The notes: generated from the letters alone by a model not told the origin. DNA of 64,000 nt from Eubacterium sp. (GCA_051881175.1 JBJEPI010000021.1:1448-65447); one strand, 5' to 3'. Positions 3,311-38,668 are shown, counted from the first letter of the stretch. Made by a program: numbers and translations.

Positions 3311-3781
3311 TTACTCAGCGGCATTGATTGTTGTTTCAACTTCGTCAGCCTGTGTACTGTTATTCTTATTGCCATTAGGATTTTTTTCTTCAGGCATATT
3401 TTCAACACTCACTGCGCCTTTATCGTTATGCTTTGGCTCTTTTTTTGAAAGACTTTCAACAAATAGCTTTTTCAGTTCTTCAATTTCCGAATCCAAGATT
3501 TCATTTCTGTTTTTTTGAAGCTGAATTTCATCAATGCAGGCGTCAAGCTCGTCTTGGCTGACATCAAGGCCCTCGTACAAATCATATTGGAGCTTTCCGT
3601 ATTTCTCATAAGCCTTAACAAGCTTGGTTTTGGAATCCAAAAGCTCTATCTTTTTCTTTGAAATTTCAAGCCTTTCTGCACTTTTTTTAGCCGCATCCTC
3701 AGCATAGGCTTTTGTTTTAAGCAAAACATCGTCAAAATTGCCGGTTTTTGCGCTGTTTAAAACATCATCAAAAATTCCCAT
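3311..3781 (-). CDS. Hypothetical coiled-coil protein
   Basis: 156 aa, charged heptad-like sequence with an acidic/Asn-rich tail. No recognisable family. Confidence 0.6.
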   Translation of the reverse strand: MGIFDDVLNSAKTGNFDDVLLKTKAYAEDAAKKSAERLEISKKKIELLDSKTKLVKAYEKYGKLQYDLYEGLDVSQDELDACIDEIQLQKNRNEILDSEIEELKKLFVESLSKKEPKHNDKGAVSVENMPEEKNPNGNKNNSTQADEVETTINAAE

Positions 3782-3871
3782 ATTTATCCCCCTTTAGGAT
3801 TAGTAAAGCTTTATTCAGTACTATTATATTACAAATTGTAGTATTTTGCAATACCAAATTGTATATTTTTA

Positions 3872-5296: not shown

Positions 5297-5907
5297 AGTG
5301 ACATATACGGGTTATGCTCTTTTTCGTAGCTCAAGGTTGTTGTCTCGTTATGACCGGGATAAACCTTATAATCGCCGTCAATAGAGGCGAGCAGCTTTAG
5401 TGAATTTATCATTTCTTCTACGGATCCGCCCGGAAAATCGGTTCTGCCACAGGACATTTTAAATAGCGTGTCACCTGTAAAAAGGCAATCCTCGGCCAAA
5501 TAACAAACCGAGCCCTTAGTATGCCCCGGGGTGGCAATAGTTTTAATTTTTATACTGCCTAATTCAATAACATCGCCATTGGCAACAATAATATCGGCAT
5601 CCGCATTGTTTTGGGGAGCGTCGCAAAAAACAGCAAGGGACAGCTTTGAAGAATTAAGCATTGGGGCGTCAGGACTTGAAATAACTATACTTGCGCCGTA
5701 CTTTGCTTTTGTATCCCTTGCGCCGCCGATATGGTCAAAATGGCCGTGAGTTAGAAGAATATATTTCAAATCGGTATCGCCGATTAGCTTCTGTGTATCT
5801 TCATTAAATTCGGTGCAATCCACCAAAACCGACTGATTTGTTTTTTCATCAACAATCAAATAGCAATTAGCACCCATCAAATCAAAGGTTGCACTTTTTA
5901 CTATCAT
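5293..5907 (-). CDS. MBL-fold metallo-hydrolase (glyoxalase II-like)
   Basis: 204 aa. THGHFDH metal-binding motif. 4-nt overlap with hemZ. Confidence 0.9.
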   Translation of the reverse strand: MIVKSATFDLMGANCYLIVDEKTNQSVLVDCTEFNEDTQKLIGDTDLKYILLTHGHFDHIGGARDTKAKYGASIVISSPDAPMLNSSKLSLAVFCDAPQNNADADIIVANGDVIELGSIKIKTIATPGHTKGSVCYLAEDCLFTGDTLFKMSCGRTDFPGGSVEEMINSLKLLASIDGDYKVYPGHNETTTLSYEKEHNPYMSL

Positions 5908-6359
5908 TATTTAAGCTCCTTGCTGTCAAGAATTATTGTAACAGGCCCGTCATTAACAAGTTCAACCTGCATATCAGCGCCGAATTCACCTGTTTCAACG
6001 GATTTAACCCCTGACCTTTTTAACTGTTCAACAAAATATTCATAAAGCAAATTTGCTTCATCAGGCGGTGCTGAATTGGTAAAGGACGGTCTTCTGCCAT
6101 GGGAGCAATCGGCACAGAGGGTAAACTGTGATATAACAAGCATTTGTCCCTCAACATCAAGGCAGGACAAATTCATTTTTCCGTTTTCATCCTCGAAAAT
6201 TCTAAGATTGGGAATTTTTTTAACAAGCTTGTCAGCGTCTTCCTTGGTGTCGCCGTTACACACGCCAAGCAAAATCATAAAGCCCTCATTGCACTTACCC
6301 ACTATTTGGTTGTCAATTTTAACATTTGAATATTTAACTCTTTGAATAACTGTTTTCAT
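5907..6359 (-). CDS. dtd: D-aminoacyl-tRNA deacylase
   Basis: 150 aa. MK.VIQRV, SQFTL and NDGPVT signature motifs. It sits downstream of relA, as is usual. Confidence 0.95.
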
Positions 6360-6367
6360 AATTTTCC

Positions 6368-8575
6368 TTACAAATCCGAACGCTCAATTAAGTAAACGCC
6401 CTGAATTCTGTTAAGCATTTTTATAATAGAATCAAGATGCTCCTTACCGTTAACGGAAATAGTCATGGTTGTCAGGCAATTTCCGTCATTAATAGGACGA
6501 GCATTTATTGAGTGAATTTTGATATGTGCGCTTGCCATTGATGTTGTGATATCAAGCACCACACCGTCACGGTCGATAGCGTATACATTAAGAGTGGAAC
6601 GTGCGTCAACCTTAATACTGTCATCCCATTTGGCGTTAACCCAACGTTCAGGCTCCGGTGACGAAGCAATATCAACAGGAACATTTTTGCAATCCCTGCG
6701 GTGAACGGTTAAGCCGTGACCTCTTGTAATAAAGCCGATAATTGACTCTCCAGGTAAGGGATTGCAGCATTTTGCCATATTGATTAGGCAGTTGTCAATG
6801 CCCTCAACGATAACTCCGCCGGAGGATTTGGCTTCACGGTTAACCTGCTTAATTTTATTGACAGGAGGAGCAGCCGGTGCTTCCTCCTTAACACGCCAAT
6901 TTCTGTTATATTCGTCCTTAATTCCGGGCATAAGCCTGCTGATTTGAACACCGCCGTAGCCAATGGCCGCATAAAAATCCTCGGCATTGGAAAAATGCTG
7001 TCTTTCGGCGATTTTAAGCACGAACTCATCAAACTTATCACCCTCAAAACGAAGATAGTTACGTTTGAATTCATGCTCCAAATCTGCCTTGCCCTGAACA
7101 ATATTTTCTTCACGGCGTTCTTTCTTAAACCAGGAACGGATTTTGGAACGTGCCTCGCCTGTTTTAACAATGTTAAGCCAATCTCTCGACGGGCCTTTAC
7201 CCTGTGCGTTAGAGGTTAATACCTCACAAATTTGGCCTGTTTTTACAACCGTATCAAGAGGGACAATTCTGCCGTCCAGCTTTGCTCCCACCATTCTGTT
7301 ACCTACAGCGGAGTGAATAGCATAAGCAAAGTCGATAACGGTTGAACCCTTTGGAAGTGATTTTACATCACCCTTTGGTGTGAAAACATAGATTTCATCA
7401 ATTGACAAATCGCCTTTAATTGACGACACCATATCCTCGGCATTATCGGCACTTTCGCCGCTTTCAAGAACCTGATGAATCCATTGAAGGGAGGCGTCAA
7501 AATTATCCTTTCCGCCCTTGCCCAGCTTGTATTTCCAGTGAGCGGCAATACCGAATTCAGCAGTACGGTGCATATCCCAAGTACGAATTTGAATTTCAAA
7601 TGGCACGCCGTGACTAATCACCGTTGTGTGAAGAGACTGATACATATTTGGTTTAGGGGTTGAGATATAATCCTTAAATCTTCCCGGTAAGGGAGTGAAC
7701 ATATCGTGAACAATGCCTAAGGCATTGTAGCAATCAATCATTGAATCAACAATAATTCTAACTGCGTAAATATCGTAAATTTCTTCAAAGTTCTTGCCCT
7801 TAATATACACCTTGCGGAAAATTCCGTGAACGGATTTCACACGGCTGGTAATTTGGCAATTCTTCATTACGGGGGTCAGCTTTTCGCTGATTTTAGAAGT
7901 AATTTCATTAAGGAAGCGCTCGCCCTCTTCCTTTTTCATGGACAGATTGTTTTCAATCTCCTTGTAAGCAATGGGGTCAAGGTATCGAATTGCTAAATCC
8001 TCAAGCTCCTCCTTGAAGGCACGAATACCTAAGCGGTGTGCAATGGGAGCGTAAATTTCAAGGGTTTCAAGTGATTTTTCCCTTTGCTTATAGGGGGGCA
8101 TATGCTCAAGAGTACGCATATTATGAAGCCTATCCGACAGCTTGATAATAATAACCCTAACATCCTGATTCATGGCAATGAACATTTTACGAATGTTTTC
8201 CGCCTGAACCTCCTCACGGGTAGAAAGAGGAATTTGACCAAGCTTTGTAACGCCATCTACAAGAAGGGCTACATCGTCGCCGAATTCCTTACGAATATAA
8301 TCAATGTCGTACTCCGTATCCTCAACAACATCATGCAAAAGCGCACCTATAATACATTCGTTATCCATACCTATGCCGAACAGGATTTTTGCCACGGCAA
8401 CAGGATGCATAATATATGGCTCGCCGGAACGCCTGCGCTGATTTTTATGGGCATCGCGGGCAAGCTTATAGGCCTTTTCAATTTTCACGCTATCATACTG
8501 TGGATTTTCTTTGATTTCATCGAAAAAATCATAGAAACGGTCGTTATAATCCTCCAGTTTGATTTTGTCAGTCAT
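6368..8575 (-). CDS. relA: Bifunctional (p)ppGpp synthetase/hydrolase RelA/SpoT homologue
   Basis: 735 aa. HD hydrolase motif HDVVEDT, a synthetase domain, and TGS and ACT-like C-terminal regions. ATGA overlap with the recJ stop. Confidence 0.95.
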
Positions 8576-10593
8576 TTTGAAAGTCGCTCCTTTAAAGAAC
8601 TTAGAATTTTTGTTTTTTCCAAATCGACCTTACCCTTTACAGGGTTAAGCATAATTTTTGTATCAAAGGTAATCAGCCCTGCCTGGGCAAAAGCCTTTAA
8701 TGAATAAATTAGCTGAGAGTAGGTTACCTTATCCTGAAGCCGAAAATACAAATTATCAATTCCGTAATTATAACCGTTATTTCGCTTAAGATAGCTGTAA
8801 ACCGCCGCACAGGCCGTTCTGTCAGGATAAAGCCCATCACAAATTCTATTGTTAAGCCTGAAAAGCTCATAATCGTTTTTTTGTGAAAAATACTTATCGT
8901 CATCTGCCGAAGCCAGCTTAACATCAACAGCCTGAACGGATAAATATGTTTTTTCGTTATAAAAATTTTTTGATACTCTAACGGCAATATTAAGGATATC
9001 TCCCACAGAATAAGGAAATCCGGAATAATCCTCGCCGAATTTTACCACCTTTATTTTCTTACCTTTTTTCTCAAGCTCCATTCTAATATGCTTGCCGTCA
9101 CTCATGGGAGAAACCGACAATAAGCGCATATTATAAATACCGAACACGGCTTGAGGATTCCCTGCACCGTAGGGTTCAAGAGATGACAGGCTATCCACCA
9201 AATCAAGACTTAAATAAAACGGAGAAAGCTTGCAATCTATCACAAGCTGCTGCGGCGGCATTAACGGATATTTTTCAAGGGCATACTCATTAATTTTTCT
9301 TCTGAAATCATCAACCCTGTCGGCCGAAAGAGTTATTCCTGCGGCCAAAGGATGACCGCCGAATTGTATTAAATCATCAGCGCAGAAGCTGATTGCCTCA
9401 AAAATATTAAAGCCGTCAACCGATCTTGCAGAGCCCTTGGCAATGCCGTCGTCATCAACGCCGATTATTATTGCGGGCTTACCGTATTTTTCAAGCACAT
9501 GGCTTGCAACTATTCCAATAACGCCGTGGTGATAATCTTCACCGGCTATTACAATAACCCTGCCGCCAACAAGATTGGGGTTTTCGTTTATTTTATTATC
9601 AATATCGTCAAGAATTTTCTTTTCAGTTTCCTGACGGTAGGAATTTTCCAAATTAAGCTGCTCACATTTGAAGGAACAATCCTCCTGATTATCACTGATT
9701 AAAAATTCAACGGCGCGCCGTGCGTCGCCCATTCTTCCCATGGCGTTGAGCCTTGGGCAAAGCTGAAAGGCAATATCATTTGCACTGTATTTTTTTTCGC
9801 CGTTTGACTCGATAAATGCCTTTATTGATGTTCGCGGATTATTGTTAATCTTTTCCAAGCCTGCACGAACAAAGGCTCTGTTTTCATTAATTAGGGGCAT
9901 AACATCTGCAATTGTTCCAATGGCAACAAGGTCCGCATACTCATTAATCAGTTCCTCTATATCGCCCTCGTACATTGCAGAAATCAATTTAAATGCCACG
10001 CCCACACCACAGTAGTCGCAAAATTTTAGATTATTATCAGGCCTGTGTGGATTTACAACAGCCTCCGCCCTGGGCATAGTATCTGCCAGCTGGTGGTGGT
10101 CGGTTATTACCAAGGACATTCCAAGCTCATAAATATGCTCTGCCTCGTTTACGGCGGATATTCCGTTATCAACGGTAACAATCAAATTAACACCCATTTC
10201 AGCGATTTTATCAATTGCAGAATTATTTAAGCCGTAGCCCTCATGCTCACGGCTGGGTATGTAGTAGCAAACATCGGCACCCTCATTTTTCAAAAAATCA
10301 TATAAAAGTGCGGTTGATGTTACGCCGTCACAATCATAGTCGCCGTATATACAGATTTTGTCGCCGTTATCAATTGCATCGCCGATTACAAAGGAGGCCT
10401 CCTCCATATCGGCAAAATCGTAGGGGGAGCAAAGCATATAGCTGTCTGCTAAAAAGCCGGATACAGCCATATCGTCGTCTATTCCCCTGGACACCAGCAA
10501 AAAAGCAATAAACGGATCGATATTAAATTTTTCGCTTAGCGCAGACGCCTTTTCCTTATCGGCATCACGCACCACCCATTTCTTATATGACAT
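8572..10593 (-). CDS. recJ: Single-stranded-DNA-specific exonuclease RecJ
   Basis: 673 aa. DHH family motifs DYDCDG, TVDNG and ITDHH. The start codon overlaps the hisE stop (TAATG). Confidence 0.92.
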   Translation of the reverse strand: MSYKKWVVRDADKEKASALSEKFNIDPFIAFLLVSRGIDDDMAVSGFLADSYMLCSPYDFADMEEASFVIGDAIDNGDKICIYGDYDCDGVTSTALLYDFLKNEGADVCYYIPSREHEGYGLNNSAIDKIAEMGVNLIVTVDNGISAVNEAEHIYELGMSLVITDHHQLADTMPRAEAVVNPHRPDNNLKFCDYCGVGVAFKLISAMYEGDIEELINEYADLVAIGTIADVMPLINENRAFVRAGLEKINNNPRTSIKAFIESNGEKKYSANDIAFQLCPRLNAMGRMGDARRAVEFLISDNQEDCSFKCEQLNLENSYRQETEKKILDDIDNKINENPNLVGGRVIVIAGEDYHHGVIGIVASHVLEKYGKPAIIIGVDDDGIAKGSARSVDGFNIFEAISFCADDLIQFGGHPLAAGITLSADRVDDFRRKINEYALEKYPLMPPQQLVIDCKLSPFYLSLDLVDSLSSLEPYGAGNPQAVFGIYNMRLLSVSPMSDGKHIRMELEKKGKKIKVVKFGEDYSGFPYSVGDILNIAVRVSKNFYNEKTYLSVQAVDVKLASADDDKYFSQKNDYELFRLNNRICDGLYPDRTACAAVYSYLKRNNGYNYGIDNLYFRLQDKVTYSQLIYSLKAFAQAGLITFDTKIMLNPVKGKVDLEKTKILSSLKERLSK

Positions 10594-10916
10594 TATGAAT
10601 TTTTATCTACCTTGTGAAAATTTTTTAAATTGCCTGCTTTTTCGGCACGCTTTTGGAGAACTGCCTCAACATCCTCAATGGTAATGCCCTGATCCACCAT
10701 CATAACAAGTGTATGATATAAAAGGTCGCATATTTCACCGACAGTTTCATCCTTTACGCCGTTTTTTGCGGCAATTACCATTTCGGTTGACTCCTCGCCA
10801 ACCTTTTTTAAAATTTTATCAATTCCCTGCTCAAAAAGATAGCAGGTATATGAACCCTCTTCCTTTGCTTCTTTTCTTGCAAGGATAGTTTCGTAATCAT
10901 TTCTAATATAATCCAT
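10593..10916 (-). CDS. hisE: Phosphoribosyl-ATP pyrophosphatase
   Basis: 107 aa. KK.GEE..E..IA and ADLLYH-like (CDLLYHTLV) HisE motifs. Confidence 0.88.
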   Translation of the reverse strand: MDYIRNDYETILARKEAKEEGSYTCYLFEQGIDKILKKVGEESTEMVIAAKNGVKDETVGEICDLLYHTLVMMVDQGITIEDVEAVLQKRAEKAGNLKNFHKVDKNS

Positions 10917-10918
10917 AG

Positions 10919-11257
10919 CTAGTCCTCTTTATTAAAATCAATATCCTTGAAAAAACAGGAGTGGTTACCTGTGTGACAGGCGGCCCCTGTTTGAATTACT
11001 TTAATCAAAAGGGTATCATCGTCGCAATCGCCCTTAATTTCCACAATTTTTTGAAGATGACCTGAGGTTGCACCCTTATTCCAAAGCTCCTGTCTTGAGC
11101 GTGACCAAAACCAAGTATATCCTGTTTCAAGAGTTTTTTTCAAGGAGTCCTTATTCATATATGCCAGCATTAAAACCTGGCCGGTTGACTCCTCCTGAAC
11201 AATGGCAGGAATTAAATCTGCTTTTACAAAATACTTATCCAAATCTATCATTTGCAC
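10919..11257 (-). CDS. hisI: Phosphoribosyl-AMP cyclohydrolase
   Basis: 112 aa. WSRSR..LW.KG..SG and DCD.D.LL..V...G.ACHTG motifs. Confidence 0.9.
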
Positions 11258-11961
11258 ACCTCAACAGCCTCTCTTAAATCAAGAGTTCCTTTGTAAATTG
11301 ATTTTCCGCATATAGCGCCGTACAGCTGACAGTCTCGCAGAGCAATAATGTCATCAATATTTGTTACTCCGCCGGAGGCTGTGATATCACAGGATACAGC
11401 GTTATTAAGTTCAACAAGCTGTTCAATATTGGGGCCCGAGAGTGTACCGTCCTTTGATATGTCGGTATAAATAATGGTTTTAACGCCCATTTCCTCCATT
11501 TGCCTTGCAAGGTCAACAAAATGAGTATCACTGCCCTCTGTCCAACCCTCGGTGGCAACAAAACCGTTTTTAGCGTCAATTCCAACGGCGATTATATCGC
11601 CGAATTCCTTAACCGCCTCTCTTACAAGCCGGGGATTTTTTAATGCCACAGAGCCTAAAATAACTCGGCTGATATTATTTTGAGCATAAAAATCAATATC
11701 GTTCATTGTGCGAATACCGCCGCCGATTTCAACCTTAAGGGGAGTTTGCTTTGCAACATCTATGAAGGTTTTGGAATTAATCGGCTTTTTTTGAAGAGAG
11801 CCGTCCAAATCCACCATGTGTATCCATTGGGCGCCTGCATCAACAAAGCTGAATGCAGTTTCAAGAGCGTCATCGGCAACCTGCTCGGCTGTGGAAAAAT
11901 CGCCCTTAAAGAGCCTTACCGGCTTTCCGTCTATTATATCAATTGCAGGAAAAATAAGCAT
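11248..11961 (-). CDS. hisA: ProFAR isomerase HisA
   Basis: [17 protein letters not shown]...HMVDLDG is HisA-type, not HisF-type. Start set at the internal ATG (11961), directly after the hisB stop. The track ORF extends to 12018. Confidence 0.88.
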
Positions 11962-13867: not shown

Positions 13868-15481
13868 CTATACTCTGCTTGCAAGCTCCAAATCATTGAG
13901 AAAATCTTCAATTTCATTCTTCCTTAGCTTCATTGAAGCCATATTAACAATAACTCTTGCAGAGATTGGTAATATTTCTTCAACAATCTCCAAGCCGTTT
14001 TCCTTAAGAGTTGAACCTGTTTCAACAATATCAACAATTCCGTCGGCCAGACCAAGCAACGGTGCAAGCTCAACACTGCCCTCTATTTTGATAACAGAAA
14101 CATCCATGCCCTTTGATTCAAAGAATTCCTTTGCAACCTTTGGATATTTTGACGCAACTGTTTTTCTTTTGTAGCCCGAAAAGAAATCCGTACCCTTAGG
14201 ACATGCCAAAGCAAATCTGCACTTGCCGATGTCAAGGTCTATTACCTCATAAAATGATGAGCCATGCTCGACGATTGTATCCTTACCCACAATGCCGATA
14301 TCACAAACTCCGTGCTCAACATAGGTTATAACATCGGGTGCCTTTGAAAGCACGGCCTCATATTTATCCACAGGAAGGATCAATCTTCTGCCTTTATTTT
14401 CAAGCTCGGCAGTATCAAGTCCCATTGTTTTGAAAAGCTTTACAGATGATTTTTCAAGCCTGCCCTTTGTGAGGGCTATTCTAATAGGCCGCTCAACATT
14501 AATCACCTCGCGCATTGCCTCACATACAGCGGACACCTCAACACCAAAACCAATAGCAGGTGCAGGCATACCGAACTCGCCCAGCAGATTATCATATCTT
14601 CCGCCTGATAAAACAGTAAGCCCGGAGCCCTCGGCATAGCCGTGGAAAATAACGCCTGTATAGTAATTAGAACGATTAACAAGCCCTAAATCAAGCATAA
14701 TATAATCCTTTAAGCCAACCTGACAAAGCTTGTTGTAAACGGTTTTAAGATAATCAAGAGCCTCCAAAGCCTTTTTGTCGCTGTATAGTTCCTTAGCTGT
14801 ATCAATTACGTCAATATCGCCGAATAGGCTTGGAAGCTTTTTAATAAGCCTTGTTTCACGATTATCGCCTATTCTGTCAAGCAAATCACCAAGCGCGGCA
14901 TAATTCTTGCCCTCAATCAGCTTGCAAATATCTGCCTTTGTGGTATTTGAAATTTCCATTTTATCAAGAACGCAGTTGAAAAACGCCGCGTTGCCTATTT
15001 CTATTTTAAAGGAATTCAGGTCGCAACGCTTTAAGCTTTCAACCGCCATGGAAATAACCTCAATATCCGCTTGCATTGAGCCGTCGCCGATTAATTCAAC
15101 ACCGCTTTGTGCAATCTCATTAGGACGTCCGTTTAAATCCTTGGAACGCACAAAAACACTTTGATTATAGTAAAGCCTAACCGGAAAATCCTCGGCATTC
15201 AGCCTTGTGGCTACCATACGGGCGATGGGCATTGTATTGTCAGGGCGAAGAACTGTTGTTCTGCCCTTTGAGTCGGAAAGCTTAAACATTTCCTCAGGCT
15301 CTATGCCTGTATTATCGCTTTTGAAAACATCAAAATATTCGATAGCCGGCGTTAAAACCTTTCGATAATCGTTTTCTTTAAATAAATCCGATAGAATATG
15401 CTCAACCTTACGGCGATCGTCACATTCCTCAAACAAAAAATCTCTTGAGCCCTCAGGGGTAACTTTTGAATATCTTTTCAT
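13868..15481 (-). CDS. hisZG: Fused ATP phosphoribosyltransferase: HisZ regulatory domain (aa 1-~325) plus short-form HisG catalytic domain (aa ~330-537)
   Basis: The N-terminal part is HisRS-like without an anticodon domain (HisZ). The C-terminal part starts RIALTKGRLEK and contains DIGIVGKD and IVDIVETGSTL, which are HisG(S) motifs. It is a single uninterrupted ORF. Confidence 0.85.
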   Translation of the reverse strand: MKRYSKVTPEGSRDFLFEECDDRRKVEHILSDLFKENDYRKVLTPAIEYFDVFKSDNTGIEPEEMFKLSDSKGRTTVLRPDNTMPIARMVATRLNAEDFPVRLYYNQSVFVRSKDLNGRPNEIAQSGVELIGDGSMQADIEVISMAVESLKRCDLNSFKIEIGNAAFFNCVLDKMEISNTTKADICKLIEGKNYAALGDLLDRIGDNRETRLIKKLPSLFGDIDVIDTAKELYSDKKALEALDYLKTVYNKLCQVGLKDYIMLDLGLVNRSNYYTGVIFHGYAEGSGLTVLSGGRYDNLLGEFGMPAPAIGFGVEVSAVCEAMREVINVERPIRIALTKGRLEKSSVKLFKTMGLDTAELENKGRRLILPVDKYEAVLSKAPDVITYVEHGVCDIGIVGKDTIVEHGSSFYEVIDLDIGKCRFALACPKGTDFFSGYKRKTVASKYPKVAKEFFESKGMDVSVIKIEGSVELAPLLGLADGIVDIVETGSTLKENGLEIVEEILPISARVIVNMASMKLRKNEIEDFLNDLELASRV

Positions 15482-15568: not shown

Positions 15569-18500
15569 CTAAAATCCAAAGAAGGAAATCTGCCTTGTTT
15601 CCGGCAAATCACCAAGAGCACCTGCCTCACGCAGAGCGTCAACAACCGACTTGCCTACACCCGGCTCGTTTGCCAAATCGTCAGCGGCGGTAAAGCCCTC
15701 GGGATTACGCTTAACGGCATCGGCAATGGCAACAGCCGCGGTTTCGCCTATTCCGTCAATAGCGGAAAAGGGCAAACGGATTTTTCCGTCTTCAATTTTA
15801 TAAACACGGTAGTCCGATTTAATCAAGTCAACCGGTAAAAACTCGTAGCCGCGGGCAAGCATTTCTATTACGATTTGGAGTACAACATACTGGGATTCCT
15901 CCTTGGCTGTTGCATCGTTGCCCTTAAGCTTGATTTCGTTCATTTTCTTTTTAACAGCATCTTTTCCCTGAACTGCGGCAACGGCATCAATAGCGCCGCC
16001 GCGAACAGTGAAGAACGCACTGTAAAACTGAAGCGGATAGTATATTTTATACCAGGCAATACGCAGAGCCGCAATAACATAAGCGGCGGCGTGAGCCTTG
16101 GGGAACATATACTTTATTTTGTAGCAGGAGTCGATATACCACTGTTCAACGCCTATCTCCTTCATTGCTTCCTCATAAGGCGGAAGCTCCTTAGGAGCCT
16201 TGCCCTTACGGGTATATTCCATAATTTTAAAGCAATCCTTTTTAGATAGCGGAGATTTTTTACCGGTTCGTTTTTCATAGTTTTCAGCAACGTGAATAAG
16301 ATGAGTCATAATATCATCACGGCAGCCGATAACATCTGAAATAGTACAGGTTCCGTCTTTAATAAGCTCCTGTGCATTACCAAGCCAAACATCGGTACCA
16401 TGAGATAATCCCGAAATTTGAAGCAAATCGGCAAATGTTTTGGGCTTAGCCTCGGTGAGCATACCCACAACAAAGGGGGTGCCCATTTCGGGAATAGCCA
16501 ATGTACCTGTTGGGTTATCAATATCCTCAGGCTCAACGCCCAGCGGTGCACATGAGGTAATTAATTCATAAAGCTTTGGATCACATAAATCCACATCCAT
16601 AACCGGAATACCTGTTGAATCCTCAAGATACTTATATAGGGTTGGATTATCGTGGCCAAGCTCATCAAGCTTCAGCAATGTATCGTGAAGAGAATTTTTA
16701 AAGTCAAAATGAGTGGTATAAGTACCCTTTTTTTCATCATTTGACGGATACTGAATAGGTGTAAAATCCTCAACAGTGTATTTATCGGGAACAACAACCA
16801 TTCCGCCCGGATGCTGACCGGTTGTACGCTTAATCTTCCCCTTATCAATCAATGCGGCAAGGCGGTCAATTTCCGCTCTTGGAATAATTGACAGCATACT
16901 GTTGCTTTCTGCAAGATTATCCTTTGCCTTTTCAACCCGCTCGCCTGTATTCTTGTCACGCTCACGGTAATAGTTAAGAACATAACCGTAAGCCGTTTTT
17001 TCGGCAATGGTTGCCATGGTACCTGCTTTAAACACATATTCCTTACCGAACAGGGTTTCGGTAAATCTGTGAATTTGTCCCTGAACCTCACCTGAGAAAT
17101 TAAGGTCGATATCAGGCTCCTTGTCTCCGTCAAAGCCAAGGAAGGTTTCAAAGGGGATTTCGTGCCCGTCGCGATTCATGGGAGTACCGCAGTTAGGACA
17201 ATTCTTTGCCGGCAGGTCAAAGCCCGAGCCCACAGAGCCGTCAAGAATAAACTCGCTGTGCTTGCATTTTTTACAGTAGTAGTGAGGTGCTAAAGGATTA
17301 ACCTCGGATATACCGCCGAAATGAGCCGCCAAGGACGAGCCGACAGAGCCTCTTGAACCAACAAGGTATCCTCTTCTTTCGCTTTCCTCAACCAAACGCT
17401 TTGCAATAACATAAAGCACGCCGTATCCGTTAGATATAATTGAGTTAAGCTCTCTTTCAAGACGGGAAGCAACATATTCGGGTACAGGATCGCCGTAAAG
17501 CTCCTTTGCCATTGACCAGCACTTATTTGTTAATTCCTCGTCGGCGCCCTCAATATACGGCTGGAAGGTTCCGGGGGGAATAGGCGGAATATTATCCTGA
17601 ATCATGTCTGCAATTTTATTTGGATTGTCAATAACAAATTCCTTTGCCCTATCCCCTGCCCAAGCAAAATCCTCAAGCATTTCTTCCGTAGTTTTAAAGT
17701 ACAAGGGCGGTTGATTATCGGCATCGTCAAAGCCCTTTGACGCCATTACAATGGCACGAAGCTTGGAGTCCTCGGGCTTAAGGAAATGAACGTCCCCTGT
17801 TGCCACAACCAACTTGCCCAGCTTATCTGCCAGCTCCACAACCTTTTTATTAATATTTGTTAAATCCTCTTGGGTATTAATTTTCCAATAAGGATTATAT
17901 CTTTGCTCTCCCTTTTTGCTGACGGTATATTCCTGATTGCTTTCACGAAGCATAAACTCATTATTGCCGTTTGGCTGAATTTCCAAATAATCATAAAACG
18001 ACGCAATGCGAAGTAGTTCTTCGTCATCTTCGCCGCGAAGAATAGCCTGAATAACCTCGCCAAGCTCGCAGGCAGAGCCAATCAAAAGTCCGTCACGCTT
18101 TTGGGCAAGCATTGATTTTGGGATAAGAGGCCTTGACCTAAAGGTTTTAACATTTGAAGCAGAAATCATTTCGTACAAATTTTTTCTGCCGTACTTACGC
18201 TCCTCCTTTGGAATGCTCTCATCAAGGGAGGTATCCTCCTTAACAAGAAGGATTATATGATGACGGCGAAAATCCTTTAGCTTTGCATTCATATAATCGG
18301 GATAAAGCTCATCATCAACCAAATAACCCTCCATACCTAAAATCAGCTTAATGCCGTTTGCCTTTGCGGCACCGTAAGCCTCAGGCAGGGCCTGTACAAC
18401 ACCGTGGTCGGTAATTGCAACTGCTTTGTGTCCCCATTTAGCGGCACAGGCAACCAGCTGCTTTGCAGGAGTCATTGCGTCCATTTCCGACATGGAGGTA

Positions 18501-19489
18501 TGCATGTGGAGTTCAACACGCTTTTCGGGAGCGTTATCCATTCTCTCGTGCTTTTTAACCCTTTCAATGCTGTTCGGTCTCAGGACAAACTCATTGGAAA
18601 ACTTATCATATTGATAGCCTCCGCTGATAATGAGAGTTCCTGCCTCTTCAACTGCCTTGATAATCGGCTCAACAACACTGTTTCTGTCAAATATTTTAAC
18701 TGATATAGACGATGTATTATCACTTACGCAGAATGAGAAAATCTTTGAGTCTCCGCGCTTTGTGTCCCTAACGTCAACGCCGAAAACGTCGCCCCAAACG
18801 GTTACATAGCCGTCATCGGGCTGAACGTCGATAATCGGCTTTGGCAGTTCACGGATAGCTCGTCCCATAATCACCTTACGGGTATCGGCATAAAGCGGCA
18901 AATCGCCCAACATTTCATGAACTGTATTTTGTTCCTCTTCTTCTTTTTTCTTTTGCTTTTCCTCTTGCTTTACCTTAACCGCCTCGGCAACTGCCTTTTC
19001 GATATCAAAGCTTTCGACCTCTAAAAACGATACTTCAAATTCAAGGGAGAATTGGTCGTAGATAAGCTGAGAAATCGCTTTATGTATATCCTGATTTTCA
19101 AGAAGCTCCCTGCCGCCTTTTTTCAGGCAAAGGGTTAGCTTGTTATCCTTAAGCTCTGCCTCCACGCCGTCAAAAAAGCCGTTAACGGCACTGTGAGTCA
19201 GTCTAATAGGAGATATAATGGTTTCAATATCTTCGGTATCAAACAAATCGGGACTGTATTTAACCTTTAGCACTGCCCTCTTTAACTCAAGTCCGTTGCA
19301 AAGAGAGCTTTGAACTGACTCAATAATTTTATAATTCAGCAAAAAATCACTGATTATGCCCAATTCAAGAGTACGCTCATCTCTGGAAACCTTCATTGAG
19401 GTAATTTCCGCAGAGCCTACATAAACCAAGTCCTGTTCACTTATATATTTTGAAAAATAGGTACATACCTGTTTAAATTCTTTTGACAT
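15569..19489 (-). CDS. polC: DNA polymerase III PolC-type alpha subunit, apparently without the proofreading exonuclease insertion
   Basis: 1306 aa. It has a PolC N-domain, an OB fold, PHP motifs (ELHMHT, AITDHG), the Zn module CKKC..CPNC, GSRGSVGSS, PDIDLNF, and C-terminal KYMFPKAHAAAYV. No DEDD exonuclease motifs lie between LVDDE (aa ~395) and HHIILLV (aa ~410). Confidence 0.93.
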   Translation of the reverse strand: MSKEFKQVCTYFSKYISEQDLVYVGSAEITSMKVSRDERTLELGIISDFLLNYKIIESVQSSLCNGLELKRAVLKVKYSPDLFDTEDIETIISPIRLTHSAVNGFFDGVEAELKDNKLTLCLKKGGRELLENQDIHKAISQLIYDQFSLEFEVSFLEVESFDIEKAVAEAVKVKQEEKQKKKEEEEQNTVHEMLGDLPLYADTRKVIMGRAIRELPKPIIDVQPDDGYVTVWGDVFGVDVRDTKRGDSKIFSFCVSDNTSSISVKIFDRNSVVEPIIKAVEEAGTLIISGGYQYDKFSNEFVLRPNSIERVKKHERMDNAPEKRVELHMHTSMSEMDAMTPAKQLVACAAKWGHKAVAITDHGVVQALPEAYGAAKANGIKLILGMEGYLVDDELYPDYMNAKLKDFRRHHIILLVKEDTSLDESIPKEERKYGRKNLYEMISASNVKTFRSRPLIPKSMLAQKRDGLLIGSACELGEVIQAILRGEDDEELLRIASFYDYLEIQPNGNNEFMLRESNQEYTVSKKGEQRYNPYWKINTQEDLTNINKKVVELADKLGKLVVATGDVHFLKPEDSKLRAIVMASKGFDDADNQPPLYFKTTEEMLEDFAWAGDRAKEFVIDNPNKIADMIQDNIPPIPPGTFQPYIEGADEELTNKCWSMAKELYGDPVPEYVASRLERELNSIISNGYGVLYVIAKRLVEESERRGYLVGSRGSVGSSLAAHFGGISEVNPLAPHYYCKKCKHSEFILDGSVGSGFDLPAKNCPNCGTPMNRDGHEIPFETFLGFDGDKEPDIDLNFSGEVQGQIHRFTETLFGKEYVFKAGTMATIAEKTAYGYVLNYYRERDKNTGERVEKAKDNLAESNSMLSIIPRAEIDRLAALIDKGKIKRTTGQHPGGMVVVPDKYTVEDFTPIQYPSNDEKKGTYTTHFDFKNSLHDTLLKLDELGHDNPTLYKYLEDSTGIPVMDVDLCDPKLYELITSCAPLGVEPEDIDNPTGTLAIPEMGTPFVVGMLTEAKPKTFADLLQISGLSHGTDVWLGNAQELIKDGTCTISDVIGCRDDIMTHLIHVAENYEKRTGKKSPLSKKDCFKIMEYTRKGKAPKELPPYEEAMKEIGVEQWYIDSCYKIKYMFPKAHAAAYVIAALRIAWYKIYYPLQFYSAFFTVRGGAIDAVAAVQGKDAVKKKMNEIKLKGNDATAKEESQYVVLQIVIEMLARGYEFLPVDLIKSDYRVYKIEDGKIRLPFSAIDGIGETAAVAIADAVKRNPEGFTAADDLANEPGVGKSVVDALREAGALGDLPETRQISFFGF

Positions 19490-20535
19490 TATAATTTATC
19501 TATCTCTTTCATCAATTCGTCTAACAATTGGCTTTCCGGCACTTTTCTTAAAATCTCGCCTTTTTTGAATATAAGTCCGCAGCCGTCGCCGCCGGCAACG
19601 CCGATATCTGCCTCCTTAGCTTCACCGGGGCCGTTAACAATGCAACCCATAACTGCAACCTTAATGGGCTTTTTGCAATCGCGAAGTCTTTCTTCAACCT
19701 GCTTTGCCAGGCCAACCAAATCAATTTTTGTTCTGCCGCAGGTGGGGCAGGAAATTAAATACGGACAATCTGTTTTTAATCCAATCGCCTTTAAAATATC
19801 AAAGGCCGCATAAACCTCTTTAACAGGGTTATCTGTTAAGCTAACACGAATGGTGTCACCAATGCCGTGGGTTAATAACGAGCCGATGCCCACTGCAGAC
19901 TTGATAATTCCCATTCGCTCGGTGCCTGCCTCGGTTACGCCCAAATGGAGAGGATAATTACATTTTTCCGCCGCAAGCTCATAGGCTTTAATCATTGTGT
20001 TTACATTTGATGACTTAATGGAAATCACAATATCGTCAAAATCAAATTTTTCCAAAAGCGAGGCGTGGTATAAGGCAGATTCAACCATAGCCTTAGGGGT
20101 AGGTGAGCCGTATTTTGCAAGTATTTCCTTTTCCAAGGAACCTGAATTAACGCCGATTCTAATGGGTAGTCCCTTTTGCCTGCAAATATCGGCAACGGCC
20201 TTAACTCTGTCCTCGGTGCCGATGTTTCCGGGGTTAATTCTGATTTTATCAATACCTCTCTCGGCGGCACCGATAGCAAGCTTATAATCGAAATGAATAT
20301 CGGCAACCAACGGAACGGTTGTTGCGTTTTTGATAGGCTCAATTAAAGCTAAGGCCTCCTCATTGGGTACGGCAAAGCGAATAACCTGACAGCCTGCCTT
20401 TTCAAGCTCCACTGCCTGCTTAACGCTGTTTTCAATATCGTCGGCCGGAATATTCAGCATTGACTGAACTAAAACCGGAGAGTCGCCACCCATATAGGTG
20501 TTACCTATCTTAATTTTTTTAGAATTTCTGTTCAT
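19489..20535 (-). CDS. ispG: 4-hydroxy-3-methylbut-2-enyl diphosphate synthase
   Basis: GcpE family, with C-terminal CPTCGR and a Cys-rich cluster region. Start placed at the ATG at 20535, preceded by AGAGGTAGTT. The track ORF starts at 20562. Confidence 0.92.
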   Translation of the reverse strand: MNRNSKKIKIGNTYMGGDSPVLVQSMLNIPADDIENSVKQAVELEKAGCQVIRFAVPNEEALALIEPIKNATTVPLVADIHFDYKLAIGAAERGIDKIRINPGNIGTEDRVKAVADICRQKGLPIRIGVNSGSLEKEILAKYGSPTPKAMVESALYHASLLEKFDFDDIVISIKSSNVNTMIKAYELAAEKCNYPLHLGVTEAGTERMGIIKSAVGIGSLLTHGIGDTIRVSLTDNPVKEVYAAFDILKAIGLKTDCPYLISCPTCGRTKIDLVGLAKQVEERLRDCKKPIKVAVMGCIVNGPGEAKEADIGVAGGDGCGLIFKKGEILRKVPESQLLDELMKEIDKL

Positions 20536-20554
20536 AACTACCTCTAAACTACCT

Positions 20555-21589
20555 CTAAACAAGCTTTGTAATATCCGAAAAGGTTATTACACACATTAAT
20601 CCAAGTAATAAAACAAGTCCTACGCCGTTAATTGCCCATTCCCATTTGTCGGGCATTTTGCGTTTGAATATTCCCTCAAAAATCAGCAGGAACAAGCGCC
20701 AACCGTCAAGAGCGGGAATTGGGAACAAATTGAATAATCCCACATTTATTGTCAAGAGCGCCATTATTCTAAGCATTGACATTGCACTTGTTTTTACCGC
20801 AGTAGACACAACGCTTACGGCGCCAACAGGGCCGCTCATATCAGTTAATCCGTATCTGCCGACTATAATGTCATGAACGGATAAAAACACCATTCTTGTA
20901 AAGGAAATCCACTGCATGGCGGTTTCCTTAACAACATTGCCAAAGGTTTTCGGAACACCTAAAAGCCAAAAATCCATTGAAATGTAATTTTTACCCTCGT
21001 ATTCCTGCATATCAAATTTAACATCAAGATTAAGGGTTTCGCCGTCACGCTCAACCACCATCTCAAGTGTGTCATCCGGAGAACGTGAAAGCCCTGTTGT
21101 AACATCTGTTGATGTATATACTCGCATGCCGTCAATGGCTTTGATTTCGTCACCCTGCTGTAATACCGAGGAGCTGACAGCCGCGTCATCGAACTTTGCA
21201 ATTTTTGGGGTACCAACCAAATTATTTGATGAAACCATAACTGCGATAATAAGAAATCCCAATAACAAATTCATTAAAGCGCCGGCAATAACAACAAATA
21301 TACGCTGAATAACCCGTTTTTTTGCAAAGGAGTTGGCGTCGTCGCTTTCCTCGCTTTCGCCCTCCATTGCACAATAACCGCCAAAGAGAATTAATCTTAA
21401 GGTGTATTTGGTATCGCCCTTTGTAAACTGAAACAGCTTTGGGCCCATACCTATTGAAAATTCATTGACCTTAATTTTCATCAATCTTGCGGCAATAAAG
21501 TGGCCGCCCTCATGAATTATAATAATTAATTCAAAGAACAAAACTGCAATCAATATTGGGTATACAGTATTCCAAATATTTGCTAACAC
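20555..21589 (-). CDS. rseP: RIP site-2 metalloprotease RseP/RasP
   Basis: 344 aa. HEGGHF zinc motif, a central PDZ-like region and C-terminal LPIPALDG. Confidence 0.9.
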   Translation of the reverse strand: MLANIWNTVYPILIAVLFFELIIIIHEGGHFIAARLMKIKVNEFSIGMGPKLFQFTKGDTKYTLRLILFGGYCAMEGESEESDDANSFAKKRVIQRIFVVIAGALMNLLLGFLIIAVMVSSNNLVGTPKIAKFDDAAVSSSVLQQGDEIKAIDGMRVYTSTDVTTGLSRSPDDTLEMVVERDGETLNLDVKFDMQEYEGKNYISMDFWLLGVPKTFGNVVKETAMQWISFTRMVFLSVHDIIVGRYGLTDMSGPVGAVSVVSTAVKTSAMSMLRIMALLTINVGLFNLFPIPALDGWRLFLLIFEGIFKRKMPDKWEWAINGVGLVLLLGLMCVITFSDITKLV

Positions 21590-22734
21590 TTAACCGTCTC
21601 CAAAACAAAATCTCTTGCAGCACGGTCCGTATCAAGGACATCCTGCAAAGTAAAATCTTTTTTATCGGGGGCATTTTTCATAGCCTCATTATTAAGATAT
21701 GCAATATCGGTAAATTTAATTTTACCGTCTAAGAACAATTTTACGCTTTCCTCGTTTGCACCGTTTGCCGCCGCCGGATGCAAGCCGCCAAGCTCAATTG
21801 CATTTTTACAAACATCAATGCATTTAAAGGTTTCGTAATCCGGTTCAAAGAATGTGAGTTTACCGTAATCAGCCAAGGATAAGGGTTTAACAGGACTTGG
21901 CACTCTTTCGGGATAGGTCAGTGCATACTGAATTGGTATTCTCATATCGGGTACGCCAAGCTGTGCAATCATTGAATTGTCCTGATAAACAATGGCAGAG
22001 TGAACAACGGACTCCCTGTGAACCACAATTTCTATATCCTCATTAGGCATATCAAAAAGCCATTTAGCTTCAATAAACTCAAGGCCCTTATTCATCATTG
22101 TAGCCGAGTCGATGGTGATTTTTGCACCCATATCCCAATTTGGATGCTTAAGGGCATCGGCGGCGGTTACATTTTCAAGGTCAGCCAATTGCCTGCCGAA
22201 AAACGGTCCGCCCGAGGCGGTGAGAACAATTTTCTTTACTGCCTCCTTACAGGGTGAGCCCTGCATTGCCTGGAATATTGCGGAATGCTCACTGTCAACA
22301 GGTAAAATTTGAACGCCGTTTTCCTTTGCCAAATTTGTAACAAGATGACCGCCGGCAACCAAGGTTTCCTTATTAGCCAGGGCAATGGTTTTTTTAGCCT
22401 TAATTGCTTCCAATGTAGGCTGAAGGCCAACCATGCCAACCACCGAATTAAGAACGGTATCTGCACCTGAATATGCGGCACAATCAATAAGTCCCTCCAT
22501 GCCGCAAACGACCTTGGTATCGGTATCAGCCAATCTAACCTTAATGTCAGCGGCTGATTTTTCATTCATTAAGCATACAAGCTCAGGCTTAAATTCTCTT
22601 GCCTGCTGTTCAATTATATCAACTCGTGAGTTTGCTGTCAGGCATTTGATGTTGTAGCCCTGCATACGGCAAACATCGAGAGTCTGGGTTCCTATTGAAC
22701 CGGTTGAACCTAACAGTGAAATATTTTTAGTCAT
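21583..22734 (-). CDS. dxr: 1-deoxy-D-xylulose 5-phosphate reductoisomerase
   Basis: 383 aa. GSTGSIG NADPH motif, with LANKE and PVDSEH motifs. Confidence 0.95.
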   Translation of the reverse strand: MTKNISLLGSTGSIGTQTLDVCRMQGYNIKCLTANSRVDIIEQQAREFKPELVCLMNEKSAADIKVRLADTDTKVVCGMEGLIDCAAYSGADTVLNSVVGMVGLQPTLEAIKAKKTIALANKETLVAGGHLVTNLAKENGVQILPVDSEHSAIFQAMQGSPCKEAVKKIVLTASGGPFFGRQLADLENVTAADALKHPNWDMGAKITIDSATMMNKGLEFIEAKWLFDMPNEDIEIVVHRESVVHSAIVYQDNSMIAQLGVPDMRIPIQYALTYPERVPSPVKPLSLADYGKLTFFEPDYETFKCIDVCKNAIELGGLHPAAANGANEESVKLFLDGKIKFTDIAYLNNEAMKNAPDKKDFTLQDVLDTDRAARDFVLETVKC

Positions 22735-25892: not shown

Positions 25893-28586
25893 TCATTCCT
25901 GTTCTTCGGCTGCAATTTCTTCCTTTGTTTTACCGCAGTTTTTGCAGGTATCCTCTTCATCATTTTCGCCGAAATCGTGGCCTGTGGCTGGGATTTGATA
26001 AAGCACATTGGTTTCACCGCAAACAGTACAAACATTGGCAACATATCCGTTCTGGGTGCAGGTTGCTTCAACAGTCTGTTCCTCCAAGGTGTGCTCAGGC
26101 TGTTTTTTTACTGCATTAATGATAATGGCAAAATCCTTGCCGTTAATTACACCGTCGCCGTTTGCGTCAACATAAGAGGTATTATCGGTGCCTGTGCGGT
26201 TAATAACCCTTGAATCTGCAAGAGACGGATTCCATTGTGCATAAACAAAACCGGGATCAACTGTTTCCTGTGTAAAGCAGTAAGTGCATCTGTAATGCAT
26301 TCCTGCACAATCAAGCTCACCGGTATAATTAAAGTTATGTCCGGCGGCAGGCACTGTGTTAATTCTTGTTGTTTTGCATATAGTACAGGTGTCCCTTGTT
26401 GTTCCGCTTAAATTGCAGGTTGGAGAGGTTAATTTTTCGTTGGTATAAAGCCCGTCAATCCATTCGTCATGGCGCATAGTGGCTGTTTGAGTTGTACCGC
26501 AGCGAGAACAGGTTGGCGTTACAAGTGAATGGCCGGGCTTATTCTCGTCGGTTAAGTCAACGGCAACATCCTTGTAATTATGGCCCAATGCAGGAATAGT
26601 AATTTCAAATTCAGAACCGCATACAGTACATACTGATACCGCACTGCCATCTTCAACACATGTTTCCTCGCTTATCACAATGTAATTACTCTCGTCAACA
26701 GTATGACCCAAGGCCGGAAGAGTTGATTGCTTTGTTGCGGTACAGCGTGAGCATTTGTAATAGTCGTATCCGCTTTCGGTACATGTTGGAGCCTTGCCGT
26801 TACCTTCAACAATAACATAGTCATGACCTAATGCGTCAATATTTTCCGACTTTGTCATTGTGCAATTTTGACAGCCGTAATAAATTTTACCGACAGCAGT
26901 ACATGTAGGCTCGGTTTGAGAGGTAACATACCATTCGTGCTGGCCGTTTGCAGGAATTGTTACGGTTCTCGTTTGACCGCAAACATCGCAAACATCCCTT
27001 TCTACACCGTCAATAACACAGTGTGCCTCACTGATAACCGTTGCCGTGTAATTACCCTCAACCCACTGGACATGGGTGGACTGAACAATCTGTTCGCCGC
27101 AGGTACGGCAGATGTACACTGTGTGAGTGTGTCCGTCTTCCTCGGTATTATCTATAACCTCCAAAATATCGGTATCGTCATAGGTATGGCCTAATGCCGG
27201 TATAGATTGGGTTATAGTTTCACCGCAGATAGTACAAACACCCTGTTGCTCACCTGCCTCTGTGCAGGTGGCTTCCTTGGTGACGGTATACTCTTCAACA
27301 TTATGCTTTCCCGAAGAAACCAAATGTGTTTCCGTGCGTGTACATCCTGTTACGGTGCAGGTATATTTTTCATATCCTGCCTTAACGCAGGTAGCGGTAT
27401 TCTCGTATGTATAATATCCGTCAATCCAAATGTAATTAGTGGCACCGTCGGTTAATTGCTGATGAGTTACAATATCTCTGGAGTCGCCGCATCTGGTGCA
27501 GGTTTCGGTTGTGTAAATATGGCCGTCGATAGCAGTATTATCAACAGTTTCCGTGGTTTCGTAGTTGTGGCCAAGGGCATCAATAGTGCTTTCCGAAATA
27601 ACAGCACCGCAATCATCGCAAACCCTTTGGCTTACACCTTCGTTAAGACATGTTGCCTCAACTGTAACAACCGTGCTTTGATTTAAGTGCTCACACTCAT
27701 CAAGAGATACAAAGGCATAACTGTTGGAGGATGCAAATTCTTCGGCTGTTGAGCCCTTATGGCCGTAAACAGTTATAGTTTGCTCAGAGCCGTTACATAC
27801 ATCTCCCGAAAGAGAGGTGTTTGGATTGTTAACAGTGAAGCTTGACAGGAAAACGCAATCGGCAAAGGCACGTGTGCCCACAGATGTAACACTATCCGGC
27901 AGTTCTACGGCGGTCATTTTGCACTTGAAAAATGACCACATGCTGACGGTGGCTACGTTTTCACCCCAATTAATTCTCTTAACACCGGCCTCGTAGAAGG
28001 CGTTTTCACCCGTTTCGGTAATACCTGAGCCGAATGTTACCGTTTCAAGGGCTGTGCATCCGGAAAAGCAACCGTATGAAAGGGTTGTAACGCTGTCCGG
28101 AAAAGTAATGCTTTTTAAAGATGTGCAATCTTTAAATGCACAGTTTTCAATAGTAGTAAGGTTTTCGGGCAGTGTGATTGATTGCAAGGATGTACAATTT
28201 TGGAAGCATCCGTAGCTGGTTGTCATGGTACCTGAACCGTGCAATGCTGTTAAGGTTGAGGGAAGAGAAACACTGACAAGGGCCGTGCAATTATAGAAAT
28301 TATAGTTGCCGATTTCAGTTATTCCCTCCTCAACAACAAGATTGGTAATATCTGATTTATAGCTCTCCCAAGGAGCCTTCGAGAGCATGGCATTATAATT
28401 TTTAGTAGCTCCTGTACCGCTGATTGTTAATGTTGTTGTGGCAGAATCATAGGACCAGGTTGCACTGTCACCGCAGCTTCCGGCGGTAGCGGCAACGACA
28501 GGCGTAACGCCCACCGACAGCATAGTTGTTATAGCGAATGTTAAAGTAAAAATAAAAGACAGAACTTTTGACATTTTTCCTTTCAT
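25893..28586 (-). CDS. Secreted multidomain protein: signal peptide, BspA-type leucine-rich repeats, about 8-9 Cys4 modules, one dockerin-like Ca-binding loop
   Basis: 897 aa. The hydrophobic N-terminus ends in VVAATA. LRR_5-like units include NCTSLQSITLP, DCTSLKSITFP and GCTALETVTF. Repeats follow the pattern TC...G.....C..CG......IPALGH.Y. Also contains DANGDGVINGKDF. Confidence 0.8.
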   Translation of the reverse strand: MKGKMSKVLSFIFTLTFAITTMLSVGVTPVVAATAGSCGDSATWSYDSATTTLTISGTGATKNYNAMLSKAPWESYKSDITNLVVEEGITEIGNYNFYNCTALVSVSLPSTLTALHGSGTMTTSYGCFQNCTSLQSITLPENLTTIENCAFKDCTSLKSITFPDSVTTLSYGCFSGCTALETVTFGSGITETGENAFYEAGVKRINWGENVATVSMWSFFKCKMTAVELPDSVTSVGTRAFADCVFLSSFTVNNPNTSLSGDVCNGSEQTITVYGHKGSTAEEFASSNSYAFVSLDECEHLNQSTVVTVEATCLNEGVSQRVCDDCGAVISESTIDALGHNYETTETVDNTAIDGHIYTTETCTRCGDSRDIVTHQQLTDGATNYIWIDGYYTYENTATCVKAGYEKYTCTVTGCTRTETHLVSSGKHNVEEYTVTKEATCTEAGEQQGVCTICGETITQSIPALGHTYDDTDILEVIDNTEEDGHTHTVYICRTCGEQIVQSTHVQWVEGNYTATVISEAHCVIDGVERDVCDVCGQTRTVTIPANGQHEWYVTSQTEPTCTAVGKIYYGCQNCTMTKSENIDALGHDYVIVEGNGKAPTCTESGYDYYKCSRCTATKQSTLPALGHTVDESNYIVISEETCVEDGSAVSVCTVCGSEFEITIPALGHNYKDVAVDLTDENKPGHSLVTPTCSRCGTTQTATMRHDEWIDGLYTNEKLTSPTCNLSGTTRDTCTICKTTRINTVPAAGHNFNYTGELDCAGMHYRCTYCFTQETVDPGFVYAQWNPSLADSRVINRTGTDNTSYVDANGDGVINGKDFAIIINAVKKQPEHTLEEQTVEATCTQNGYVANVCTVCGETNVLYQIPATGHDFGENDEEDTCKNCGKTKEEIAAEEQE

Positions 28587-32892: not shown

Positions 32893-33047
32893 AAGCTTTC
32901 TCCTAAAATAACTCAAAACTATACTCCACAAATATATAATATTGATTTTTGGCAATTATTGCAAGAGAAATTAATAATTATTTCTAAATGATTTCAATTT
33001 ACTATAATTGCCAATTACCCAAAAACTATTGTTAATCGAAACAACGC

Positions 33048-38667: not shown

Positions 38668-38668
38668 C

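Follow-up and report, generated by a model that had tools for sequence, protein, structure and literature searches.

A PolC without its DnaQ-like exonuclease and with an intact PHP metal site in the Eubacterium coprostanoligenes group

Firmicutes replicate their DNA with PolC, an essential enzyme that is also a drug target and whose built-in DnaQ exonuclease is usually taken as a defining feature. How, then, would a PolC without this domain remove its errors? The question is raised by a polC gene in a 64,000-nt stretch of DNA from Eubacterium sp. (GCA_051881175.1 JBJEPI010000021.1:1448-65447), referred to below as the window. The original prediction, made from the sequence alone, had held that the DEDD 3'-5' exonuclease normally inserted in the PHP domain was cleanly lost from the encoded protein, that the rest of the protein was intact, and that proofreading would have to be provided in trans or by the PHP domain. 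We found the exonuclease domain missing from PolC in every member of the Eubacterium coprostanoligenes group examined, and proofreading in cis by the PHP domain appears to be the probable solution. The gene and the parts of its product, whose lengths and positions are given in amino acids (aa), are as follows:

15569..19489, minus strand: polC, encoding a PolC-type DNA polymerase III alpha subunit without exonuclease (exo-less), 1306 aa
18890..19489, minus strand: poorly conserved N-terminal domain, aa 1-200, with a weak Pfam match to DNA_pol3_a_NI (E=0.004)
18560..18820, minus strand: segment aligning with Geobacillus PolC from residue 15 onward, with a weak Pfam OB match
18314..18523, minus strand: first part of the PHP domain, aa 323-392, with ligands H328, H330, D361, H362, and E387
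18260..18313, minus strand: 18-residue linker DELYPDYMNAKLKDFRRH, aa 393-410, at the insert site of the DnaQ-like exonuclease (~200 aa)
18194..18259, minus strand: strand HIILLVK with the invariant ligand H411, then a clade-specific loop EDTSLDESIPKEERK, aa 411-432
17570..18193, minus strand: second part of the PHP domain, aa 433-640, with ligands C474, D566, and H568
16163..17536, minus strand: polymerase core (palm, thumb, and fingers), aa 652-1109, from Pfam and clade conservation
15590..15850, minus strand: tandem helix-hairpin-helix (HhH), aa 1214-1300, Pfam HHH_6 (E=3.9e-11)
15578..15592, minus strand: C-terminal beta-clamp binding motif QISFF, aa 1300-1304, with the clade consensus Q-I-S-L/F-F

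The span on which the prediction was based, 18230..18330, encodes PolC residues 387-420 (EGYLVDDELYPDYMNAKLKDFRRHHIILLVKEDT). The hallmark of canonical PolC, a DnaQ-like DEDDh exonuclease inserted in the PHP domain, was not found in this protein. The RNase_T profile (PF00929) gave no Pfam match on PolC even at E<=1. Furthermore, we built an exonuclease hidden Markov model (HMM) from 101 inserts of canonical PolC representatives, which recovers 108 representatives. This model scored the PolC protein at -1.4 bits, and in six frames of the window it returned nothing credible, with a best score of 11.8 bits within a RelA/SpoT open reading frame (ORF). A diverged exonuclease, hidden in PolC or in another frame, was rejected on the strength of the Pfam search at E<=1 and the purpose-built HMM, with filters off. 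The alignments agree with the profile searches. The full-length PolC 9QPC pairs query residues 165-402 with positions 212-440 and query residues 432-1305 with positions 649-1472, so that about 208 chain residues face 29 query residues, and the exo-deleted crystal construct 3F2B from Geobacillus kaustophilus aligns colinearly with the query. Between the VDD motif and the invariant His411, the query has 18 residues, versus 192-232 in most exo-containing representatives. With neither a profile match nor an alignment placing a DEDD domain in the ORF, and with an 18-residue linker at the insert site, the exonuclease domain is missing, as had been proposed. The accompanying claim that three exonuclease motifs are absent from the whole protein was correct for FD.ETTG and H.A..D, but N..FD has a single occurrence, at residue 103, well away from the PHP domain. 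We also considered the linker as a tail remnant of the canonical insert; this was rejected, as a vague likeness was seen to one representative only (P0125, DYMSANADPLKLPMY) and was not robust.

Apart from this domain, the protein is a PolC. Both NCBIfam equivalog cut-offs were exceeded (NF001688, 1352.8 bits against a cut-off of 873; TIGR01405, 1206.5 bits against 1043.45), the PolC equivalog match being split into two pieces, of which the second pairs query residues 432-1304 with profile positions 624-1444. Pfam assigned PHP to aa 326-499, DNA_pol3_alpha to 652-945, the finger domain to 958-1109, and HHH_6 to 1214-1300. Together with the alignments to Protein Data Bank (PDB) structures, these matches give the PolC domain order, i.e., N-terminal domain, OB fold N-terminal to PHP, polymerase core, HhH, and C-terminal clamp motif. 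The polymerase core holds the catalytic motifs PDIDLNF (792) and LDELGHD (941) and a zinc module of the form CxxC...CxxC (739-768). The clamp motif of the clade, Q-I-S-L/F-F, fits the published beta-clamp consensus QL[S/D]LF (PMC3919608).

To place the protein among its relatives, a scan with one genome per GTDB species was used, which yielded 80 loci with exo-less-size matches at 60-91% identity. The query and these 80 relatives from the E. coprostanoligenes group form the clade alignment of 81 sequences. The best relative is a metagenome-assembled genome from the Hadza gut (91% identity), and the set includes Eubacterium coprostanoligenes ATCC 51222 (78%; class Clostridia), Eubacterium sp. 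CAG:251, and Firmicutes bacterium CAG:341. The exo-less junction is common to the independent assemblies of all 80 relatives, and none of the best 120 protein clusters (71-91% identity, 1170-1312 aa) carries PF00929. PDIDLNF and LDELGHD are invariant in the 81 sequences, and the zinc module cysteines (CKKC...CPNC; two CxxC pairs) and the C-terminal clamp motif are conserved in the clade. The N-terminal domain has a mean conservation of 0.57. Within the linker, residues Y396, P397, K403, and R409 are 96-100% conserved. The loop after the H411 strand (aa 418-432, 18194..18238) comprises 13 aa here (EDTSLDESIPKEERKY) and 24 aa in the E. coprostanoligenes subgroup, and it is absent in the most divergent relatives (L056, L059-L062, L064, L066); given its position beside the PHP site, it could be relevant to substrate access. 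In summary, the exo-less state is clade-wide and under purifying selection.

The genomic setting of polC is conserved as well:

19489..20562, minus strand: ispG (GcpE), immediately upstream of polC
20555..21589: rseP, and 21583..22734: dxr, which with ispG form the conserved polC neighbourhood
13868..15481, minus strand: hisZ-hisG fusion gene, immediately downstream of polC

ispG lies immediately upstream of polC in 71/71 related loci with room for it, and the hisZ-hisG fusion immediately downstream in 71/74. The shared junction, the conserved locus, and the invariant motifs exclude both an assembly deletion and a pseudogene. A pseudogene was also rejected because the ORF is uninterrupted and its profile scores lie above the equivalog cut-offs, and a sequencing or assembly deletion because the junction recurs in 80 assemblies, with the 120 protein clusters likewise free of PF00929. 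The prediction of a clean DEDD loss in an otherwise intact gene was thereby borne out, given the profile scores, the invariant catalytic motifs, the conserved locus, and a closed PHP fold (see below), and the survey that it had called for showed the loss to be clade-wide. The same observations bear on the alternative that this gene is an accessory second PolC copy, or the product of an assembly or sequencing deletion, with a canonical exo-containing PolC elsewhere. In its favour, there are tandem PolC pairs whose second copy is exo-less, one of which is described below, and a 2xPolC category is listed in PMC3919608. Against it stand the junction shared by 80 independent assemblies, the 120 clusters without PF00929, and the position of polC after ispG in the dxr-rseP-ispG-polC neighbourhood of the related loci. 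Moreover, the exo-less PolC of Acidaminococcus genomes is their sole PolC, and the accessory copy of the tandem pair has a degenerate PHP site, in contrast to the intact site of the query. We regard this alternative as highly improbable.

What remains in the protein that could proofread is the PHP site. Its ligands, H328, H330, D361, H362, E387, H411, C474, D566, and H568, read HHDHEHCDH, which fits HHDHEH[C/H]DH, the signature of an 'active' PHP proofreader in a 2026 survey (PMC12926913). Eight of the nine ligands are conserved in 81/81 sequences, and D566 is conserved in 80/81, the remaining sequence having an ambiguous X. A trinuclear PHP site is responsible for proofreading in Mycobacterium tuberculosis DnaE1 and Thermus PolIII-alpha, and Geobacillus PolC, with one PHP ligand changed, has no PHP exonuclease activity (PMC5636811). 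At the position of D566 the query reads GDVH versus GNVH in the Geobacillus crystal construct, which suggests from sequence that the changed ligand is the Asn at this position. With GDVH, the query has the consensus Asp at D566, and all nine consensus ligands are present. The insertion point of the PolC exonuclease corresponds to a loop lining the PHP active-site groove of M. tuberculosis DnaE1, which is 29 residues long in M. tuberculosis and 18 in Taq (PMC5636811); the linker of the query has 18. A confident AlphaFold model of aa 318-650 (predicted local distance difference test, pLDDT, 85.3; predicted template modelling score, pTM, 0.86) has a closed PHP domain with a well-ordered linker. 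In Foldseek, this model matched the PHP domains of PolC and DnaE (E<=1e-13). It superposes gap-free on exo-deleted Geobacillus PolC over 338 aligned columns, and in comparison with full-length PolC (478-511 columns) the exonuclease domain appears as a gap. Against DnaE PHP domains, the template modelling score (TM-score), normalised to the query, was ~0.65-0.67.

The link between exonuclease loss and the PHP site was further followed in a broader set of PolC proteins. With query aa 107-1306, 1.84 billion cluster representatives were searched exhaustively in HMMER; the best 150 matches included 129 full-length proteins, of which 23 were exo-less and 106 exo-containing. The PHP signature was intact in 22/23 exo-less versus 67/106 exo-containing representatives (Fisher p=0.002, uncorrected for phylogeny). 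The linkers of the exo-less representatives range from 6 to 59 aa and vary between lineages in both length and sequence. Parsimony on neighbour-joining trees gave 12-17 changes of exonuclease state across 25 bootstrap replicates, a rough count from crude trees. These changes and the differing linkers point to repeated independent deletions of the exonuclease. The query groups by neighbour joining with three exo-less representatives and one exo-containing protein from an Oscillospiraceae bacterium, and the length and sequence of its linker point to a deletion that was probably independent of those in other exo-less lineages. Within Oscillospiraceae, Ethanoligenens harbinense has a canonical PolC together with DnaE1. 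The sole exo-less representative without an intact PHP site, P0240 (1178 aa), is degenerate at the ligand positions (HRDLE-SDQ). It lies directly downstream of a canonical PolC of 1400 aa with RNase_T, which makes it a tandem second copy, and seems to be a paralogue without any proofreader. This tandem PolC pair has the following location:

3702..11537 of locus L081, ENA metagenome contig k141_497749: tandem PolC pair

Cas12f1-like TNB (TnpB-type) genes were also observed near this pair.

Taken together, we consider it probable that the gene encodes a resident, functional PolC replicase which lost the DEDD domain in the ancestor of the clade, and whose PHP domain most likely proofreads in cis. 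According to this reading, the ancestor of the E. coprostanoligenes group (Clostridia; gut anaerobes of the Oscillospiraceae/Acutalibacteraceae type) would have precisely deleted the DnaQ-like exonuclease, i.e., the canonical PolC insertion in the PHP loop, and left the 18-residue connector behind. The protein would have kept the OB fold, the complete PHP domain, the zinc module, the polymerase core, the HhH, and the clamp-binding motif, and with these domains it should still work as a clamp-bound replicative polymerase. Misincorporated nucleotides would then be removed 3'-5' in cis by the trinuclear PHP metal site with its nine intact ligands, in the mode of M. tuberculosis and Thermus DnaE1. 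We infer that the PHP site is catalytically active as a proofreader, and that PolC rather than DnaE1 performs bulk synthesis. As the ligands are kept in the clade and in 22 of the 23 exo-less representatives, PHP proofreading in cis is the best explanation.

Several points weigh against this reading. Canonical clostridial PolCs mostly keep an intact PHP site too, so that conserved ligands do not set exo-less proteins apart and may have been kept for structural or other reasons. Exonuclease loss and an intact PHP signature were associated in a test uncorrected for phylogeny. Our literature searches found no PolC PHP domain with experimentally demonstrated exonuclease activity, nor any published test of the PHP domain from an exo-less PolC. 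Lastly, the search for dnaQ-like genes and DnaE1 covered the 64-kb window and the polC flanks of the relatives only.

Within that scope, two alternatives were weighed. In the first, a separately encoded DnaQ/epsilon-like DEDD exonuclease would dock on PolC and proofread in trans, in the way that epsilon docks on DnaE in E. coli. PolC is not known to have an epsilon-binding surface. No stand-alone dnaQ-like gene was found with the exonuclease HMM, which detected a DEDD domain neither in the six frames of the 64-kb window nor in 1.59 Mb of polC-flanking DNA from the 80 relatives. The original prediction, by its own logic, allowed for this option, and stand-alone DnaQ homologues are common, with more than three per bacterial proteome on average (PMC12926913). 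An exonuclease in trans would, however, leave the strict retention of PHP ligands in exo-less PolCs unexplained, and because of this strict conservation of nine metal ligands we favour the PHP option and consider DnaQ in trans unlikely.

The second alternative assigns the task to DnaE1, which, with its own intact PHP domain and possibly epsilon, would be the main replicase or the proofreader in trans. PolC would no longer be the high-fidelity bulk replicase, and its DnaQ insert would thus be dispensable. Strongly strand-biased genes and purine asymmetry are usually linked to PolC-type replication, and the presence of both in the window, with 53 of its 56 ORFs sharing a strand, argues against this alternative. 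So do the retained clamp motif, the canonical locus, and the polymerase core of PolC, whose average identity of 0.91 to the column consensus across 81 species argues for a working replicase. DnaE1 was also not located, as there was no DnaE gene within the window or the +/-10 kb polC flanks of the 80 relatives; no DnaE1-specific database search was made. On the other side, Timinskas et al. put this idea forward for PolC+DnaE1 organisms; every exo-less PolC that they describe occurs in an organism with both PolC and DnaE1, and clostridial DnaE1 has all features of a self-sufficient replicase (PMC3919608). In addition, the PolC exonuclease of B. subtilis is able to proofread for DnaE3 in trans (PMC12926913), which sets a precedent for proofreading between two polymerases. 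On balance, we consider this alternative unlikely as well.

A further reading extends beyond this clade. Clostridial PolC may carry two redundant proofreaders, of which DnaQ was repeatedly dropped and the PHP site left perfectly intact each time; the PHP domain would then be the sole proofreader in the PolC of this clade and the ancestral mode restored; we see this wider scenario as evenly balanced between right and wrong. Abundant in the gut, the E. coprostanoligenes group offers a natural test case for whether a PolC PHP domain can proofread, as well as for the split of fidelity between the two polymerases in PolC+DnaE1 replication, a system still uncharacterised. If our reading is true, the PolC of this clade is a ready-made system in which PHP exonuclease activity could be shown in a PolC for the first time.

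Regarding the surroundings of polC, the downstream fusion gene is one ORF of 537 aa, with a HisZ-like tRNA-synt_His domain at aa 11-319 and a short-form HisG at aa 380-532. HisZ and HisG are normally two subunits of ATP phosphoribosyltransferase. The his operon continues after it with hisD, hisB, and hisA/F, and with hisI (10919..11257) and hisE (10593..10916) as separate ORFs. Over the whole window, the minus strand holds 53 of the 56 ORFs (56.0 kb vs 3.2 kb), and the plus strand has a GC skew of -0.08 and an AT skew of -0.03; strand bias and purine asymmetry thus persist despite the loss of the DnaQ domain of PolC. A low-GC island at 38000..45000 (GC 0.32-0.35 vs ~0.41 elsewhere in the window) looks like a recently acquired or duplicated segment. 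It contains two HAD-hydrolase genes that are 94% identical (40964..41581 and 43843..44457), an MNT/HEPN-type pair consisting of a nucleotidyltransferase (40602..40934) and a HepT-like RNase (40270..40605), and genes for a metallophosphoesterase, a transglutaminase-like protein, and a NUDIX hydrolase. On the minus strand, BspA-type LRR_5 repeats occur in three large proteins predicted to lie at the surface, encoded at 25893..28586, 37375..38565, and 58127..62107. A type I dockerin accompanies the repeats in one of them, an fn3 domain in another, and a subtilase S8 domain in the protein of 1326 aa, and these LRR_5/dockerin proteins point to a cellulosome- or amylosome-like surface biology. No Pfam match was obtained for a 652-aa ORF at 34724..36682 on the minus strand (E<=1e-3) or for two overlapping ORFs of 429 and 171 aa at 31188..32955 on the minus strand (E<=1e-5), and Rfam at gathering thresholds found no RNA family anywhere in the 64 kb.

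Compared to known systems, the query shares the OB-PHP-Pol3-HhH order, the zinc module, and the catalytic residues with canonical PolC (Geobacillus kaustophilus 3F2B/3F2C, 9QPC, B. subtilis), the PHP regions being 40% identical and the whole proteins matching at E=1.8e-287. It differs from canonical PolC in lacking the ~200-aa DnaQ insert and in having several clade-specific loops, and from the Geobacillus crystal construct in having Asp566 instead of Asn. With the DnaE1 proteins of M. tuberculosis (5LEW/7PU7) and Thermus aquaticus (2HPI/3E0D), it shares the nine-ligand trinuclear PHP site and the short loop, but it belongs to the PolC branch and not to DnaE, and the PHP regions are only 19-26% identical.

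The closest counterparts are the exo-less PolCs that have already been described. In total, 6% of PolC sequences lack the Exo insertion, all of them from Clostridia and Negativicutes bar one exception in Thermotogae (Timinskas et al., NAR 2014, PMC3919608). The subgroup architecture of N-terminal domain, OB, PHP, Pol3, and HhH in a Clostridia organism is also that of the query, so the architecture was already known; the phenomenon has been known since 2013-14, and the query is not a new kind of system. The exo-less PolCs of Acidaminococcus have 1191 and 1210 aa, this same architecture, and the PHP pattern HHDHEHCDH, and they are the only PolC in their PolC+DnaE1 (PC+E1) hosts (PMC3919608). Acidaminococcus fermentans YP_003399045 (1191 aa) resembles the query in domain architecture, HHDHEHCDH, type of clamp motif, and Clostridia-type host. 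The E. coprostanoligenes clade has no entry in the supplementary tables of the 2026 survey (PMC12926913), and there is no mention of it among the rows listed in the 2014 table that fall alphabetically before Ruminococcus (PMC3919608). The query differs from the exo-less PolCs of Timinskas et al. in coming from the E. coprostanoligenes lineage, with a nearest exo-containing relative annotated as Oscillospiraceae bacterium, and in its linker, which is unlike those of other exo-less lineages (6 to 33 aa) both in length and in sequence. What is new here is a well-sampled exo-less clade, together with supporting statistics on repeated exonuclease loss and strict PHP retention.

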